This document shows positions 1-19,080 of a stretch of DNA of 19,196 nt, in pieces (the first letter of the stretch is position 1; each line of letters opens with the position of its first letter). A program made the translations under genes and the position numbers. Below the pieces are notes generated by a model. That model was not told the DNA's origin. It did not search any database and was given only the letters and a program-made list of their open reading frames with translations. This stretch comes from a virus. The DNA is taken from the UHGV virus genome UHGV-1692018. One strand, 5' to 3'.

Positions 1-88
1 GGACTTCGGGGGAAAAACGAGTATTTTTAGTCATCCTGTTTACCTCTTTCTCAGGAAGTTTAGTCTCCAGGATTCCCGGGGCGGTTCA
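1..88 (-). mobile_element. Terminal 88 bp of an IS3-family insertion sequence (IS629/IS1203-like), left inverted repeat plus start of orfA; the rest of the element lies outside the window
   Basis: Bases 1-88 are the exact reverse complement of 19109-19196. Read on the minus strand the segment starts TGAACCGCCCCGGGAATCCTGGAGACTAAAC and contains ATGACTAAAAATACTCGTTTTTCCCCCGAAGTCC, translating to MTKNTRFSPEV, which I recognise as the orfA N-terminus of IS629-type elements. Identity ends abruptly at 88/89. Confidence 0.85.
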
Positions 89-248
89 CATCGCCCTTTG
101 CCTCAAGTTTCATCAATAACTCCATTCGATAAGCTATCTCTGCCTGAATTGACCTATGGCATCTTTTTGCTGATTCGCGGATATGTGAATCAACCTTTTC
201 TGTAAAACGAACCTGACGCGGCTTGATGGAAGATATCTTTTCAGTCAT
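60..248 (-). CDS. Arc/Mnt-family ribbon-helix-helix repressor, C-terminus altered by IS insertion (last ~9 residues IS-encoded)
   Basis: 62-aa ORF with AGGAG 7 nt upstream of the ATG. The stretch RQVRFTEKVDSHIRESAKRCHRSIQAEIAYRMELLMK aligns by eye with P22 Arc FNLRWPREVLDLVRKVAEENGRSVNSEIYQRVMESFKK. Codon 54 spans the phage/IS junction at 88/89, so residues 54-62 (VNRPGNPGD) and the stop are IS-encoded. Confidence 0.7.
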   Translation of the reverse strand: MTEKISSIKPRQVRFTEKVDSHIRESAKRCHRSIQAEIAYRMELLMKLEAKGDVNRPGNPGD

Positions 249-347: not shown

Positions 348-989
348 ATGAATTTTGACGATCAATTCCCATCAAGAGTATCTCTGGCAAGACAGTCCAG
401 GGGTATGACGCAGGCGCAGTTGTCAAAATTAGCTGGTGTTGTTCAACGTCAAATAGCTGCATACGAGGGTGGTGAGGCTAAACCACGGCTTCGGGTATTG
501 CAGGCATTAGCCAACGCATTAGGTACTACAGCTGAGTGGTTAGCTCTAGGTGAAGGTCAGGGTCCGGGAACAAAAAACGTCATGCCTGACGTTCTGGTAA
601 AGCAAATACCAATCCTCAAACTAGATGAAGTTATGCATTACCTAAACACAGGTGAACATTCATCGTCTAGATTTCATCCGGCAATATACAATGTTGGTGA
701 CTCTGCATTTGCATTGACTATTGAAGGTGAAGCTATGACTACAAGTTCAGGTATTAGCTTTCCCAGAGGATCGGTTGTCACGTTCAGCCCTCTAGTAAAA
801 GCTAAAAGCAAAGATTATGTAATAGCATCATTGGATAAAGAGCAAATATTGAGCTTCAAACAGGTTTACATTGGTGAAATAGAGACAAACCTAGTATCCC
901 TAAACCCAATGTATCCTAATATTCTTGTTAGAAATGAAGATGTTAGTATTTTGGCAACCGCAGTTTACCTTGAAATCCCGTTGCTTTGA
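348..989 (+). CDS. Lambda-CI-like repressor: N-terminal XRE-type HTH plus C-terminal S24 (LexA/CI) peptidase-like domain with apparent Ser-to-Ala at the catalytic position
   Basis: 213 aa. N-terminus SRVSLARQSRGMTQAQLSKLAGVVQRQIAAYEGG resembles the 434/lambda repressor HTH. C-terminus DSAFALTIEGEAMTTSSGISFPRG ... SFKQVYIGE ... LNPMYPNI aligns with lambda CI [26 protein letters not shown] ... FKKLIRDSG ... LNPQYP; the GNSM motif appears as GEAM. Confidence 0.8.
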   Translation: MNFDDQFPSRVSLARQSRGMTQAQLSKLAGVVQRQIAAYEGGEAKPRLRVLQALANALGTTAEWLALGEGQGPGTKNVMPDVLVKQIPILKLDEVMHYLNTGEHSSSRFHPAIYNVGDSAFALTIEGEAMTTSSGISFPRGSVVTFSPLVKAKSKDYVIASLDKEQILSFKQVYIGEIETNLVSLNPMYPNILVRNEDVSILATAVYLEIPLL

Positions 990-1049
990 TATCCTTTAGG
1001 AAGCGACACATTATCATCTGGTATCCTGCTCAAAACTAAGGAGGTTGGT

Positions 1050-1238
1050 GTGAAGAAAAAATTTGTAAACGTTGCAAAGTGCGCAATTTTTATATTTTTT
1101 ATGACCTTTTACGGATTTAGTGCCGGAGAAGGTTTCGATCGTGATGCCAATGCATTCAGTTTCTTTTGTCTGTCTATAGTGGTCATAATTGTATGGGTGG
1201 AATTAAAGCAAACATTGTTTCATGTGCTAAGGAAATAA
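1050..1238 (+). CDS. Small hydrophobic protein (62 aa, two predicted hydrophobic segments), function unknown; candidate superinfection-exclusion or membrane-acting protein
   Basis: GTG start preceded by AAGGAGG at about 6 nt. Sequence MKKKFVNVAKCAIFIFFMTFYGFSA...FSFFCLSIVVIIVWV has two hydrophobic stretches. Sits in an AT-rich stretch directly downstream of the CI-like gene on the same strand. Confidence 0.5.
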   Translation: MKKKFVNVAKCAIFIFFMTFYGFSAGEGFDRDANAFSFFCLSIVVIIVWVELKQTLFHVLRK

Positions 1239-1255
1239 CCATCCATGGCATTTAG

Positions 1256-3085
1256 TCACTGCTGTGTTGCCTCAGTGGCAAGCAGCGGTCTGATGGCATT
1301 TGCAGCGTTACTTAATGCTCTTTCATAGGCTGGCGTTCCTGCTTTGGTGTTTGCCAAACGTAAGAGAGCATTCCTTGCTGCTTTTGACTCATACAAGCGC
1401 ATCATTGCACCGAAACCAGCCTCAAGCCCCATTGATACGCCAAGAGTCGCAGTTGCGCCAATCGTCCTTATCCTGTTGGCTTGCGATTGTCCTGTCTGTG
1501 TTACTACATTTGCGGCGTCCGACCTTGCTGTTTGCTGTAGAACTTCATGAAGAGCATCAAGCTCTTTCATGTGTCTCCCACTGAATATCGTGTTATAGAT
1601 CTGACCGTCAGATTGCGACTTCAACTTATTTAACTCGGTAAGAAATTTTGTTGGCGAGTCTCCTGCTTTTTCTGCAATCTTGCTGATATAAGCAGCACGC
1701 ATAGCGTTCTTTCCATCTTCACTAAGAGCTGGCCATATCCTCTTAATATCTGATGGTTTTCTGCTGAATACAACACTGTTTATTAGCTCTGGAGTAAACT
1801 CTTTTTTAGCTTTGTTGAGATTATTCGCAATCCTTTTATTAAGAACCTTATTGAAGACGTTAGAGTAGTCAGAGTTTGCCTTGACGTATCTGGCGGCCTC
1901 TCCAGCCCCCAAATACCGCGCTGCGTTATTCCTCAAATCTGCCCCCATTGCCCTCTCCACGGTATCAGTTGCGGCTTTCGCGCTATTAGGAAAAACCATG
2001 GCATCTCCCTGAATACTTTCCCTCAAGGCTGACCGCAACTCTCTCAATAGACCAAAATCTATATCTGGTTTAGCAAGTTCTTCTCGCAAATCGGATAACC
2101 CGCGAATCAAATCCTTATTTGCCACTTTCCCAAGCCTATTAGCTCTGGTAAGTACGTTGTCGATAACCTTAATAGATTTTGATGTGTCAACTGGTGTGTC
2201 TCCCATTTTGGCTGTAATGTCTTCAATAACGCTTCCGGCCGAATCCTTCCTTGACTTCAGAGAACCATACAGATCGTCAACAACAACTGATGGGCTATAT
2301 TCACCATATTTCTCAAGCTGTTTTTTAACTAGCTGACTTCTTTTTGCATACTGCTCAGCTCGCTTTGAGCCTGTCCCGAGCAAAGCCCCCTCGGCATCCT
2401 GAGTTAGGCCGCGAGTGAAAGCATTTTTCGGCGGGATAACATCAGATGTCATTGGTGTCACGCCCATCGATTCTGAGGTGGCAATTTTTTTCGCTACTTC
2501 TGGCGCGATATCGCCTTTTATAGCCGTTATTCCACGCCCTATTCCCTTTGCTGCTGCGGAAAGAACACCCTGAGCAGCAAGGTTAACTCCGGCGTTTATG
2601 GCTGCATTTTGCGCGAAATCGCCTTTCTGGTTTGCGGCTTCTGCCAGTGATCCAATAGCCATGCTTCCTGCAGTTCCAACTCCTGGAACTAAATACCCGC
2701 CAATTGTTTCTCCAGCTTGCGCATAAGGGTCTGTTGGTCGATCTACTGGACGATAGACATCGTCCAAAACCTTGTGACCACCAAGCCCCTGGCTGATTGC
2801 ATTAATCAGACTTGCGCCACCCTGCAATACGTCAAATGGTATGTTTACCAGACCACGACCAGCCTGTTCTGCAATTTGCCCTGCACTTTGACCACCAGTG
2901 AGCCAATCGCCAGCTTGTTGCATCAATGATGGTTCTTCCTGTGTTGGTGCATTATTGGCCTGATTAACTGTTTGTTGCTGAACAGCCTGACCAGCAAAAT
3001 ACTCATCAATGGCGGTGCCAATATCTTCGGTGCTCGTACCATCAGGAAAGGTAAATGTCTTACCGTTTGCAGTTACTTTCATCAT
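1256..3085 (-). CDS. Ejection (internal virion) protein, P22 gp16-like
   Basis: 609 aa, Ala/Gly/Gln-rich, last gene of the virion operon in the position of P22 gene 16, whose size I recall as 609 aa. Start overlaps the upstream gene's stop. Confidence 0.8.
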
Positions 3086-4461
3086 TCCACCGTAAATTGA
3101 ATGCCTGATTTTGACGTGTAGCTACCTCCTGCTGATTGCTGAGTAGCTGGCTGTTGCCTTGATGATTTCTTCCCGCCATTACCGACATTAACGTTATATT
3201 GCTGGTTGTAATTGTCGGTATATTGCTGAATGTCGCGCATTGATTGTTGTAGTGCTTCAGGGCTTGAGAAATCAACCTGTGGCATACCTTGAAAATACAT
3301 CTTTGCTTCTGCAACGGTGTTGATACCAGATGCCCCCATGTCTCTGGCTGCTGCAATGCCCTGATTCTGCATCTTTCCTTGGATTCGCTGTGCAGCGTTG
3401 TATAGTTTCCTCTGATCACCACCAGAGGCACGGCTACGAATATCTGCACCAAGAGCAGGAGAACCTGAAGAGCCTGTAATGCCAGTCATGAAGCCAAGAT
3501 CGTCAATTGATGCGCCAGAAATTGCATCAAGATCTTTCTTCATTGCGTAATTCTGCGCGCTTGCTGCCGACGTGGCCGGAGCAGCAATAGAGCCAGCAGG
3601 AACGCGAACCATGTTCCCCTCATTGTCTATTCCTTCGTAGAACGCGTTAGCACCTGCACCATGAAGCTTCCCGCCTACGGTTACAGTTCTTCCGTCTGCT
3701 AGTTGAACTGTGCGCTCATTATTACCAACAGCCCCTTTCATTGATGCTCTCTGCATCGCTAAATCCTGACCTCTCCGTGCAGTAGCAGCAGATAAATCCT
3801 GACCGCGCATCGTGATATCCTGACCACGAGCAGTTAACTGATTTCTTTCTCCTTCAAGTCGACGCCCCTCCATTCGATCTTTGATATCGAAGTACTTCTC
3901 ATGACCGAGAGAAAATAGTGCCAGATTACCTGTGAAGTGCTGGAAGCCCTGCGGGTCATTAACCTGCATTTCCGCAATAGTTTCTGGAGGGATACCTAAA
4001 CGACGCATCTCCTTTTCGTTATCCATCATGAACCTGCCAAATGCACCCGGACCAAGCGACGAAGCGACCTGAGCCTTAAGCGCCAGATTGCCAAAATCAT
4101 TCCGCTGGGCGTCATCGACATACCCCATGCCTTTACGAACTTCCTCAAACTCTTCGGGGAATGCTGTAATAAGATTACGCATCTGCTCCCTGTCGCCGGA
4201 CGCATAAGCATCCGCATAACCTTTCTGGAATGCCGCTTTACGTTCCTGCTGTTGCTGCTGCTTATAAATATCAGCAACTCCAGCCAGACCACGTAACGCG
4301 GTCAGACCAACGTTATTTGCACCTGATCGAGCCAGTTCATTGTTTTCGCGAATCAGACCAAGCGTTGCATTAATGTCGCTTGCCTTTGGCGCATTCTCGT
4401 TTTGCGCACCAATTCCAGCCAGAAAACCACCAGAATTAATACCCTGTTGCCACGTAGCCAT
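3082..4461 (-). CDS. Ejection protein, P22 gp20-like
   Basis: 459 aa in the gp20 position (P22 gp20 about 471 aa from memory); low-complexity Gly/Ala/Gln-rich composition typical of podovirus ejection proteins. Confidence 0.75.
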
Positions 4462-4471
4462 TGATTACCCC

Positions 4472-5161
4472 TTAAAACAACGAGCCAAGCAGACCAAGAC
4501 CAGCACCGATACCAGCACCCCACGGAGTTGATAGCTCGAGAGCACTGGCTATGCCACCACCCAAAAGCGCACCGGATGCAGCACCACTAACACCCTGCCG
4601 CAATGCTGACGGTCGGTTGGCGTTTGCCGCTGCAAGAGCCGCGCTTTGCTGTGAAATCTGACTCATGTTGTTGGCATATGTTTGCCCGGCGTTTGCCTGT
4701 CCCTGAAGAGCGCCAAGACCGATATTTGCCAGGTTGTTGTAATTGTTCATTTGTCCAGATAGCCATTGCTGACCAAGCGTTGGTGCGATTGTTGCTAACT
4801 GATTACTGGTTGCGGTGGAACCCAATCCACCTGTTGCTTCCGCTGCAGCCAGACTCTGATAGCGAGCCTGACCAGCAAGATCTTTGTACTGCTGAGAGTT
4901 GTAATACTGGTTAAGTGCCTGACCTTGCCCTTCCAGAGACGATAAGTTCTCAAGGCTGCCGACATACTTCCCAGCCAGAGGAGTAAACGGCTTCAGGTTG
5001 TTCATGATGGTATTGAACTGCTGATTTTGCAGGTCTGCGGCATACTTCTGAGCTTCTGCGGCATACTTTGCACTTTTATCAGAGCCACCTTTCCCGCCTT
5101 TTTCAGGGCAATAAGGTTCCTCGCCGCGCAGTTTTCTGCCCAGCTTAAATGCATATAACAT
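4472..5161 (-). CDS. Ejection protein, P22 gp7-like
   Basis: 229 aa, the size I recall for P22 gp7; begins MLYAFKLGRKLRGEEP; Gln/Asn/Ala-rich; Gly-rich hydrophobic C-terminus. Confidence 0.75.
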   Translation of the reverse strand: MLYAFKLGRKLRGEEPYCPEKGGKGGSDKSAKYAAEAQKYAADLQNQQFNTIMNNLKPFTPLAGKYVGSLENLSSLEGQGQALNQYYNSQQYKDLAGQARYQSLAAAEATGGLGSTATSNQLATIAPTLGQQWLSGQMNNYNNLANIGLGALQGQANAGQTYANNMSQISQQSAALAAANANRPSALRQGVSGAASGALLGGGIASALELSTPWGAGIGAGLGLLGSLF

Positions 5162-16285: not shown

Positions 16286-16723
16286 TTATTTCAGGCATTG
16301 CGTCCTGATGTATTCCTGCAGGTAGTTAACCTGCGCGGTTATCTTGTCGATTCCACTTCGGAGACGGTAATAATTGAGTTCAGCATCTGCTGTAAGTCCT
16401 GGGCTTTCTCCATCGCCCATGCCGCTGGCTCCGGTCGTTGACTTTGCACAGGTGGCGGCGACTTGCAGGCGCTTACGCCCAGCAGAAACATCAGCACGGA
16501 GACTTTCGATAGTCGCGTTAGCATCAGCAAGCTCCTTTGTGTATCTGGCGTCGAGTTCTGCTACATCACGTTGACGCTTCTGCATATCAGCGATGATGGA
16601 TGTGGCTTTATCGCGCTGCTCTTTGTAGGTCATGGCGTTATCACGGTAATGATTAACAGCCCATGACAGGCAGACGATGATGCAGATAACCAGAGCGGAG
16701 ATAATCGCGGTTACCCTGCTCAT
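16286..16723 (-). CDS. Rz: Rz-type i-spanin (inner-membrane spanin)
   Basis: The ATG at 16723 overlaps the endolysin stop (ATGA). N-terminal transmembrane segment ([18 protein letters not shown]) followed by a charged, probably coiled-coil periplasmic region. An Rz1-like ORF is embedded in the +1 frame. Confidence 0.8.
16339..16530 (-). CDS. Rz1: Rz1-type o-spanin (outer-membrane lipoprotein) embedded within Rz
   Basis: Lies wholly inside Rz in another frame. Signal peptide with lipobox VSAC (FLLGVSAC) followed by a Pro-rich mature region ([16 protein letters not shown]), the classic Rz1 signature. Confidence 0.8.
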
Positions 16724-17223
16724 TGCTGCCCCCACAAACAGACTTCACGCTCAATATCACGACGGGTCATCAGTCCTTTCCATTGCTTACCGCCAGCGTA
16801 TGTCCAGCGACGTAGTTGATCACATGCACCTTTGATATCGCCCTGGTTGATTTTGCGAAGAAGCGTCGATGTTCTGAAATTGCCAGCGCCCACGTTGTAA
16901 ACGAACGAGTAAAGAGCGCCGCGCGTTGTTTCCGGTATATCGACTTTGATGTACGGGTTAATTTGTCTGGCGACCGTGGCAAGGTCTTTATTCAGGAGGG
17001 CTTTGCATTCTGCTTCGGTATACGTTTTACCGAGCATGATGTCTTTTCCTGTATGCCCGTAACATACAGTCCATACACCAACAATATCTTTGTATGGTAT
17101 GTAGCTGACACCTTCCAGGCCATCGTTACCACTTGGTCCAGTGATTAACACAGATGCTATAGCAATAGCCCCGCCACTTATCGCCGCTATTACGCTATTT
17201 CGTAGTGCCGGTGACATTGCCAT
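16720..17223 (-). CDS. SAR endolysin (signal-anchor-release lysozyme, T4-lysozyme/GH24-like)
   Basis: N-terminal Gly/Ala-rich weakly hydrophobic segment ([20 protein letters not shown]) followed by a catalytic region with the E-8 residues-D-5 residues-T pattern ([17 protein letters not shown]), as in P1 Lyz and phage 21 R. Confidence 0.85.
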
Positions 17224-17398
17224 TCAATCTGTCCTCGCGCTCTTTGCGCTTGTAGTACCAGTTGATGCCAAATGTGCCGACAGTACAAAGAATACCAATG
17301 ATGACAGCCCAGTCATTCAGGGAGAGAATGCCACCCATCGCAGTCAGTCCTCCGAAGCTGTAACTGAACCATTCTCTGATTTTGTCCATACGGTACAT
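17195..17398 (-). CDS. Pinholin-type (class II, S21-like) holin with dual-start motif
   Basis: 67 aa; starts MYRMDKI, compared with phage 21 S MKSMDKI as recalled. Gly-rich first hydrophobic segment ([13 protein letters not shown]), second transmembrane segment ([18 protein letters not shown]), basic C-terminus. Paired with a SAR endolysin. Confidence 0.7.
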
Positions 17399-17854: not shown

Positions 17855-18367
17855 TTAAACGGTATGATATTTCATTCTGGCTGCCTCAAAAGCCGCAGCG
17901 GCAAGTTCGGCAGTGTCATGGTATCCAAGGTTAATACACTTTCCAGACGCATTAATTCTTGCTCTCCATTTCCCGTACTTAGCATCCCAAGACACGCCAC
18001 GGTATCCAGATTTATTATTCTTCTGAATTTTCCTGTTTTGCATATTTTCGGAATGAGTGACAAGACGAAGATTTGATATCCGGTTATCTGTTCTTACCCT
18101 GTTGATGTGATCAATAAAACCATCGGGCATGGTGCCATAAACAATCAACCATGCCAGTCTGTGAGCAGGGCATGCTTTACCATTAATCATAATCATTAAA
18201 TACCCATCAGAATTTATTGATGAGCATTTCTTGAAAGCAAAACGAGAGTTCCATGTCAAAGTGGTCCTCTCTCTCCCCTGCCTCCATCTCCAGTGAAAGT
18301 CGCCTGATGATGGATTGTAATCAACAACAGAAAGCACCATTTCTGGCGTTAATTTTATTTCTTTCAT
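17855..18367 (-). CDS. Free-standing HNH homing endonuclease with C-terminal AP2-type DNA-binding domain
   Basis: 170 aa. HNH motif region AHRLAWLIVYGTMPDGFIDHINRVRTDNRISNLRLVTHSEN; C-terminal AP2-like region GYRGVSWDAKYGKWRARI...GYHDTAELAAAAFEAARMKY. Confidence 0.85.
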   Translation of the reverse strand: MKEIKLTPEMVLSVVDYNPSSGDFHWRWRQGRERTTLTWNSRFAFKKCSSINSDGYLMIMINGKACPAHRLAWLIVYGTMPDGFIDHINRVRTDNRISNLRLVTHSENMQNRKIQKNNKSGYRGVSWDAKYGKWRARINASGKCINLGYHDTAELAAAAFEAARMKYHTV

Positions 18368-18554: not shown

Positions 18555-18584
18555 ATTATGGCTAAATGGCTAATTGCATGTCAA
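18555..18584 (-). promoter_or_regulatory. Candidate late promoter (pR'-like) overlapping the 3' end of the Q-like gene
   Basis: Minus strand has TTGACA (18579-18584), an 18-nt spacer containing the Q stop codon, then CATAAT (18555-18560). Predicted start is about 18548, giving a roughly 55-nt RNA ending at the 18490-18512 terminator. A -10-like element (TATGCT) lies in the initial transcribed region. Confidence 0.45.
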
Positions 18585-19080
18585 GACTTTTAACAGCAAC
18601 ATGCTTAACTTTCTCAACACGTTTACGCATTTTGAAAGCATTTTGCATTGGTTGGTACAAAACAAATAACGACGCTTTCAGGATGTCGTCAATTTCGTTT
18701 CTACAGGTTGCCATTGAAGGTTTTCTCCATCCCTCGCCACCACGTCCACACATCTTGCGTGGCTTTGCAGTCGCGTGATAGTAGGATGCAATTGCTCGCT
18801 TAGATGAACCATGAGCGTAGTAGCTGAGGAGGATGCCAAAGGCTTTTTTGTCAATGTACATGACGGAATCGACGACCTGAGAAATCAACATTCCATCATC
18901 ATCATTGCACATTGGCCTTGTCATAACTCTTCCCGGCTCTACGCTCTCCATGAACTTCGCTATTACGCTGCTCATGCGCTTTTCCAGACGACCTGAATAA
19001 ACCCATGCGCCCCACAGTTCAAGCCAGCCATTCAGCCACTCATGCTGTTCTTTGGTGAGGTTTAGTTCTCTTATGCCCAC
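18562..19080 (-). CDS. Q-like late-gene antitermination protein (QuuD/phage-82-type family, tentative)
   Basis: 172 aa, GTG start with GGAG upstream. Motifs WLELWGAW and RPMCNDDDGMLI resemble E. coli prophage Q-type antiterminators (QuuD: ERWGAW ... RPQICDDDAMII, recalled from memory). Located immediately upstream of the late promoter/terminator and the lysis cassette. Confidence 0.6.
   Translation of the reverse strand: MGIRELNLTKEQHEWLNGWLELWGAWVYSGRLEKRMSSVIAKFMESVEPGRVMTRPMCNDDDGMLISQVVDSVMYIDKKAFGILLSYYAHGSSKRAIASYYHATAKPRKMCGRGGEGWRKPSMATCRNEIDDILKASLFVLYQPMQNAFKMRKRVEKVKHVAVKSLDMQLAI

Follow-up and report, generated by a model that had tools for sequence, protein, structure and literature searches.

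The 62-residue open reading frame (ORF) at 1050–1238 is a genuine gene under purifying selection. It encodes an uncharacterised and under-annotated accessory membrane protein of prophages, found at the P22 sieA/immI locus. It is quite possible that this protein protects the lysogen at the inner membrane, with superinfection exclusion as the favoured mode, and we put this forward tentatively on the basis of its position and of its mutual exclusivity with sieA. The window, by which we mean the whole 19,196-nucleotide stretch of UHGV-1692018 that was analysed, is part of a P22-like (Lederbergvirus) prophage with its late operon on the minus strand; beyond the genes for gp7, gp20 and gp16 it holds virion, terminase, lysis and Q-like genes. 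The features referred to below are collected in the table.

Features of the window, with their positions, strands and the basis on which each was assigned.
Feature	Position	Strand	Basis or remarks
CI-like gene (HTH_3 + Peptidase_S24), co-oriented upstream	348..989	+	Pfam
Promoter-like element, TTGATA-17 nt-CATTAT	986..1014	+	consensus scan; P22 sieA upstream alignment
Conserved leader GGTATCCTGCTCAAAACTAAGGAGGTTGGT, including Shine-Dalgarno AAGGAGG at 1038-1044	1019..1049	+	alignment with P22 sieA leader
62-aa ORF, PHROG 21338	1050..1238	+	GTG start 1050, TAA stop 1236-1238
Predicted transmembrane helix 1 (aa 11-25)	1080..1124	+	hydropathy, charge; AF2 helix 2-24
Short acidic loop GEGFDRDANA (net -2), predicted periplasmic	1125..1154	+	charge pattern; AF2 turn aa 25-28
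Predicted transmembrane helix 2 (aa 36-50) and basic cytoplasmic tail	1155..1235	+	alignments; AF2 helix 29-60
Conserved 11-mer CCATCCATGGC (= CCATCCNTGGC)	1239..1249	+	directly 3' of ORF stop codon
Convergent gene 16 homologue (DNA ejection protein)	1256..3085	-	annotations in JEP4, UTAK-8; synteny
gp20	3082-4461	-	
gp7	4472-5161	-	
Lysis cassette, phage 21 type	16286-17398	-	
Rz with embedded Rz1-like lipoprotein ORF	16286-16735 and 16339-16530	-	
Endolysin with N-terminal SAR-like hydrophobic segment	16720-17223	-	
67-aa pinholin-like ORF	17195-17398	-	

The length of the ORF is within what chance would produce, as the window holds many spurious ORFs of 60 residues or more, and it is its conservation that places it above chance. 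The PHROG 21338 profile, a family of unknown function in the database annotation, matches it end to end (positions 1–62 of 62, E = 5.3e-45). Searches of billions of proteins, both word-indexed and by exhaustive HMM comparison, gathered a family of 27 clusters at 90% identity, with members of 61–66 residues and identities down to about 32%, from P22-like prophages of E. coli, Salmonella, Serratia, Pluralibacter and Pectobacterium and also from metagenomes. In all DNA copies examined, from members of 32–100% identity, the frame is open without indels or stop codons; the start is exchanged between GTG and ATG and the stop between TAA and TAG or TGA, while the Shine-Dalgarno sequence is kept. The dN/dS ratio is 0.11–0.42 in the frame of the ORF (Nei-Gojobori; binomial p down to 1e-6) and about 0.6–8.8 in the other two. 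That this is instead a chance ORF in an AT-rich spacer, or DNA kept for some non-coding role such as that of a terminator, RNA or recombination linker, might be argued from the lack of annotation in most PGAP genomes and in all three phage records, and from the conservation of the adjoining non-coding motifs, the leader and the 11-mer. Such an origin is effectively refuted, however, by dN/dS values of 0.11–0.17 (p down to 1e-6) confined to this one frame, by the unbroken frame across the family and by a conserved positive-inside charge pattern in the product. No Rfam family matched positions 1–1700 on either strand at E ≤ 1, and RNA folding of 1015–1300 was unremarkable on both strands (z-scores -1.8 and -0.4), which also counts against it.

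At 95% identity or more the ORF is present in 89 of 5,426 complete E. coli genomes, mostly unannotated by PGAP. Three sequenced phages carry it (JEP4, phiv205-1 and UPF_BP1), none with an annotation, and a tblastn search with distant family members against 50,697 phage records added no others; among GTDB species representatives a single locus was found, in Serratia fonticola. Some gene finders give N-terminally extended products of 86–103 residues, which we rejected since the extension is specific to its context and the Shine-Dalgarno sequence and start codon are conserved. The "orf62" of phage L was considered as a lead and set aside, since in ST64T it proved to be another gene, lying on the late strand and with a lipoprotein-like product. 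We found no paper on the 62-aa family, on the function of hkcB or on the gene 16 slot as a defence hotspot.

The original prediction, of a small membrane-protein gene in an AT-rich stretch, stands up well at this level. The near-consensus Shine-Dalgarno sequence that had been proposed ends 5 nt before the GTG. The distance to the convergent gp16 stop codon (1256–1258), given beforehand as about 18 bp, measures 17 nt. The GC content is 0.34 against 0.47 in gene 16, confirming the AT-richness, which is real yet partly due to the Phe/Ile/Lys-rich codons of a membrane protein. The two hydrophobic segments that had been noticed are also there, at residues 11–25 and 36–50 with 19-residue Kyte-Doolittle peaks of 1.71 and 2.16, and family conservation together with the hairpin architecture bears out the assignment as a small membrane protein.

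The N-terminus ahead of helix 1 is basic (MKKKFVNVAK, +4), the loop carries a net charge of -2 and the C-terminal tail +2, and a positive-inside pattern is seen in all 12 aligned members; the predicted topology is thus that of an inner-membrane protein with both termini in the cytoplasm. Phe14, Met18 and Trp49 are invariant in the family alignments and Lys10, Gly22, Ser37, Phe38, Ile43, Ile46, Ile47, Glu51 and Lys53 nearly so, with a W-x-E-(L/I)-K motif closing helix 2 and opening the basic tail. AlphaFold2 models a helical hairpin (helices 2–24 and 29–60), with a mean pLDDT of 87 using 17 sequences and 71 using 7. When these models were compared by Foldseek with the PDB and BFVD, the hits were no more than helical hairpins of a generic kind (best E 3.4 and 0.6). 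A search of small-membrane-protein families, suggested as a check on the ORF, gave a match to PHROG 21338 alone: neither Pfam nor PADLOC-DB, a collection for anti-phage defence, yielded a family at E ≤ 1, and NCBIfam had no match.

In size and shape the protein resembles class II holins and pinholins of the phage 21 S21 type, which have some 60–70 residues, two transmembrane helices, both termini inside and a basic C-terminus. Unlike these, it is encoded outside the lysis cassette and on the opposite strand. We rejected a holin on these grounds, as the ORF is antisense to that cassette, a pinholin-like gene, a SAR endolysin and Rz/Rz1 are already present in the window, and no holin family was matched. 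Between the lysis cassette and the Q-like antiterminator gene (18562–19080) lies a homing-endonuclease-like gene with HNH_3 and AP2 domains (17855–18367, minus strand).

The leader ahead of the ORF is that of sieA. Positions 1019–1052, the leader and the GTG start, are 97% identical to P22 13828–13861, the sieA leader, and several IMG/VR copies of the 62-aa gene carry the actual P22-type upstream sequence. The promoter-like element further upstream, whose -35 hexamer overlaps the stop codon of the CI-like gene, has 9 of 12 matches to the consensus and is positionally equivalent to the PsieA annotated in the P22 record; we take it to be a putative promoter. It is conserved in E. coli HS, whose identical CI-like gene and leader stand ahead of a gene for a type B SieA of 212 residues that includes FNRYPGEARKFNK. 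When the HS1 type B sieA was cloned together with the 106 bp upstream of it, P22-like phages were excluded (Leavitt et al, 2024, PMC10883804). These 106 bp, sufficient for expression of the HS1 gene, correspond to window positions 948–1043 and include the promoter-like element. The suggestion made from the window alone, that the ORF sits where P22 carries sieA, is therefore confirmed by the shared leader and start context, by the element at the PsieA position and by the arrangement in HS.

The same leader is common to P22 sieA, HK620 hkcB, epsilon34 gene 14 and other cassettes. Its core, AAAACTAAGGAGGTTGGTGTG, occurs once in each of 50 of the 80 gp7-anchored P22-like loci, and the constant leader, Shine-Dalgarno sequence and GTG precede at least 10 unrelated types of ORF, mostly envelope proteins, including sieA type A, hkcB, a 75-aa protein with two transmembrane segments, a 129-aa signal-peptide protein and a 140-aa protein (loci compared for this slot: L021, L022, L024, L035–L037 and L121–L200). 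Among the 67 loci that could be resolved, which are not phylogenetically independent so that the counts are descriptive only, the occupant was hkcB-like in 16, the 129-aa protein in about 13, the 75-aa protein in 7, the 62-aa family in 6, SieA type B in 5, the 140-aa protein in about 5 and SieA type A in 3, with others making up the remainder; most are membrane or exported proteins. From these alignments the slot appears to be a compact variable-cassette hotspot in P22-like phages. The other cassettes share leader, slot, orientation and membrane anchoring with the 62-aa ORF, but are unrelated to it in sequence and architecture; among them are a 109-aa protein with an N-terminal anchor and a coiled coil, the 75-aa two-transmembrane protein and the 129-aa signal-peptide protein.

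At the other end of the gene, the 11-mer directly after the stop codon is found in nearly all family members, including those of only 32–52% identity, while the ends of gene 16 differ, and it may be a cassette junction. It was also considered as an RNA hairpin or terminator and rejected, as the fold is not consistently formed and no intrinsic terminator is predicted. In one locus the 11-mer separates a 77-aa two-transmembrane ORF from the family ORF (L028, 3975–4000). In five others (L006–L010; L006 5190–5284) it is followed by a Shine-Dalgarno sequence and a 22-codon hydrophobic mini-ORF, MVTVGWIIVALLVALWAKNRYY, which overlaps the end of gene 16 in antisense.

The 62-aa protein shares with P22 SieA a predicted location in the inner membrane and a distribution among the P22-like prophages of Enterobacterales. 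Its gene takes the sieA slot in the 16–9 interval, where it is the final gene going leftward and lies next to gene 16, convergent on it, and it has the same leader, Shine-Dalgarno sequence, GTG context and promoter position. In itself the protein is quite different. SieA proteins of types A, B and C have 162–215 residues and 3–4 helices as against 62 residues and two helices, and the cytoplasmic motif FxRYPxEAxxFNK, present in P22 and HS1 SieA, is absent from the ORF and from about 60 family loci. Sequence or profile similarity is undetectable, hhalign giving the family a probability of 0.2% with P22 SieA and 0.6% with HS1 SieA and no relationship to the alternative 75-aa cassette. As judged by these comparisons, the family is not homologous to SieA. 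The two are mutually exclusive in the loci sampled: none of 50 sieA loci gave a match to the 62-aa family (positive control, 32 of 32), though such counts overstate independence as many loci are near-identical.

At all the loci examined, the final plus-strand gene is the family member, which converges on the stop of the gene 16 homologue at a distance of 17–45 nt; one lineage has a 95-aa ORF in between. The gp16 alleles with which it is paired are of at least four very different kinds (609–786 aa). Upstream the neighbours vary, with at least 10 different ones, among them the 213-aa CI-like protein, a 286-aa HTH-S24 protein, Arc-like proteins, a 161-aa lipoprotein, a Rap1a-like protein, a Fic protein, the 77-aa two-transmembrane protein and a divergent Panacea-domain gene, and two metagenomic phage lineages have no gene other than the family member between the tailspike gene and gene 16. 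The sole constant neighbour, in E. coli, Salmonella, Serratia and metagenomic P22-like phages, is thus the 3' end of gene 16, and the CI-like gene beside the ORF is an incidental and not a conserved partner. The CI-like protein itself is identical in E. coli HS, UTAK-8 and E272, where it precedes type B sieA in HS and an unrelated junction in E272. The proposal that the ORF works with this repressor, along the lines of RexB, does not survive these comparisons, some phages having no such upstream neighbour at all. It had also been proposed that transcription must either terminate or collide between the ORF and gp16. No intrinsic terminator is predicted there. The P22-like late transcript must traverse the 16–9 interval to reach the tailspike gene (PMC8022706), so that collision is built into the architecture.

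Several of the regions upstream carry features of their own. The CI-like gene of the window is divergent from a gene for a 57-aa ribbon-helix-helix (RHH) protein (Arc-like, phrog_10182; ORF 60–248, minus strand), with a promoter-like TTGACT-17-AATAAT at 326–298 on the minus strand. The CI-like gene stands where an immI-like antirepressor switch has Mnt, which suggests SOS/RecA-cleavable control of the antirepressor. Positions 1–89 are the end of an IS3-family (IS629-like) element, with a terminal inverted repeat and the start of OrfA, reading outward. It is inserted in the 3' end of the RHH gene, replacing the last codons, and parts this gene from the antirepressor genes (Rha/KilA) that JEP4 and UTAK-8 have. 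In E272 (L020, 3590–3660) replication and immC genes of the opposite strand follow immediately on the CI-like gene and leader; the match to the window runs up to 1052 and is followed by a match to CE10 for about 17 nt past the GTG. This indicates that the region underwent a large deletion or rearrangement whose breakpoint falls shortly after the start of the slot ORF behind the leader. In Serratia a Rap1a-like gene (PF18602) with a signal peptide lies immediately upstream of the small ORF (L011–L014 and L038, about 4644–4991). The family annotation of PF18602 is that of a type VI secretion immunity protein, and the gene looks like a prophage-borne orphan immunity gene for that system. In Salmonella (L015–L019, 4483–4968) the place is taken by the 161-aa lipoprotein, which has an LLAGC lipobox and a Gln-rich middle and matched no family. 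The immI region of E. coli DE17 and phage phiv205-1 (L005/L002, 2208–3664) encodes a ClpP-like protease and a Panacea-domain protein; the gene of the latter has a partner, with which it looks like a toxin–antitoxin or defence pair. The 16–9 interval thus accumulates defence-type cargo.

The proposal that the 62-aa protein protects the lysogen follows from the positional analogy and the mutual exclusivity with sieA. It is in keeping with the membrane or exported nature of most other occupants of the slot; against it stands the lack of similarity to SieA, to Pfam, NCBIfam or PADLOC families and to solved or viral structures. Given the shared PsieA-type promoter position, leader and Shine-Dalgarno sequence, the gene would probably be active in the prophage and read antisense to the late operon. 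The hairpin would insert in the inner membrane with both termini in the cytoplasm, an acidic periplasmic loop and a basic cytoplasmic tail, and would shield the lysogen there. The mode we favour is interference with the delivery of DNA by incoming (P22-like) phages, which might act through the gp16/gp20 conduit or a host membrane factor. T4 Imm offers a parallel, in that the 62-aa protein is likewise a small phage-encoded inner-membrane protein with two transmembrane segments and a plausible blocker of genome entry; unlike Imm, which is an early lytic gene product of a different type of phage, the ORF sits in a prophage slot. With no Pfam match at E ≤ 1, the Imm family, which we take to be included in Pfam, is presumably unmatched as well. 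A bolder version, somewhat unlikely as a whole, would make the hairpin a minimal blocker of the gp7/gp20/gp16 conduit unrelated to SieA, and the slot an exchange site of constant leader and variable cassette, with a single fixed promoter, leader and GTG and with conserved junction 11-mers, at which P22-like phages would swap at least 10 unrelated envelope or defence genes.

Small host proteins such as MgrB and AcrZ bind and tune inner-membrane partners, and the 62-aa protein could likewise be a lysogenic-conversion factor unrelated to phage entry, acting on a sensor kinase, transporter or protease of the host inner membrane. Its size and hairpin architecture are those of many regulatory small membrane proteins, and the slot also holds cargo that does not look anti-phage, such as the Rap1a-like gene of Serratia and the lipoprotein of Salmonella. 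We consider this unlikely, since the strict association with P22-like phages and gene 16 across physiologically different genera fits a phage-directed role better, and the gene substitutes for sieA under the same leader. Alternatively, the protein might serve the phage itself through a functional link to gp16, for example by keeping newly made ejection proteins from acting too early on the membrane or by preventing reinfection of the lysing cell; this would account for the 3' end of gene 16 as the only invariant neighbour and for the retention of the ORF as the sole gene of the 16–9 interval in minimal phages; P22 sieA is also reported to be upregulated on induction (PMC10883804). Most P22-like phages lack the ORF, however (it is in 6 of 67 resolved loci and only three sequenced phages), so that it is not essential, and it pairs with at least four very different gp16 alleles; we regard such a role as improbable.

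The original prediction had also raised a toxic membrane effector. In this case a membrane-depolarising toxin, of a type I toxin–antitoxin or abortive-infection kind, would be silenced by the antisense late-operon transcript or another RNA and would kill on infection. The small, hydrophobic product, the AT-rich gene and its position convergent with and antisense to the late transcript are what such a toxin would look like, but we regard it as improbable. The strong Shine-Dalgarno sequence and short unstructured leader are common to the non-toxic sieA, for which no growth defect is reported (PMC10883804), and the ORF is intact in the 89 E. coli genomes that carry it. There is no minus-strand promoter-like site at or inside the ORF, the only one in 1–1700 being that at 326–298, and no Rfam antitoxin RNA in 1–1700 on either strand at E ≤ 1. 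The toxin families of Pfam and NCBIfam were unmatched, so that neither the toxin family nor the antitoxin RNA that would define a type I system of the Hok, Ldr, TisB, Ibs or ShoB types was found. The protein also has two helices and a conserved polar loop in place of the usual single helix.

Protection of the lysogen by exclusion remains the reading that we prefer, and the function is directly testable by the published SieA assays. SieA, a single membrane protein, blocks very divergent gp16/gp20 conduits. If the 62-aa protein excludes too, a non-homologous protein of one third the size would be a minimal tool for mapping the part of the conduit or the host factor that is targeted. The gene is in any case a concrete example of a hidden small protein, missed in most of the E. 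coli genomes that hold it and in every phage record, and the hotspot behind the shared leader could be mined for exclusion and defence genes.
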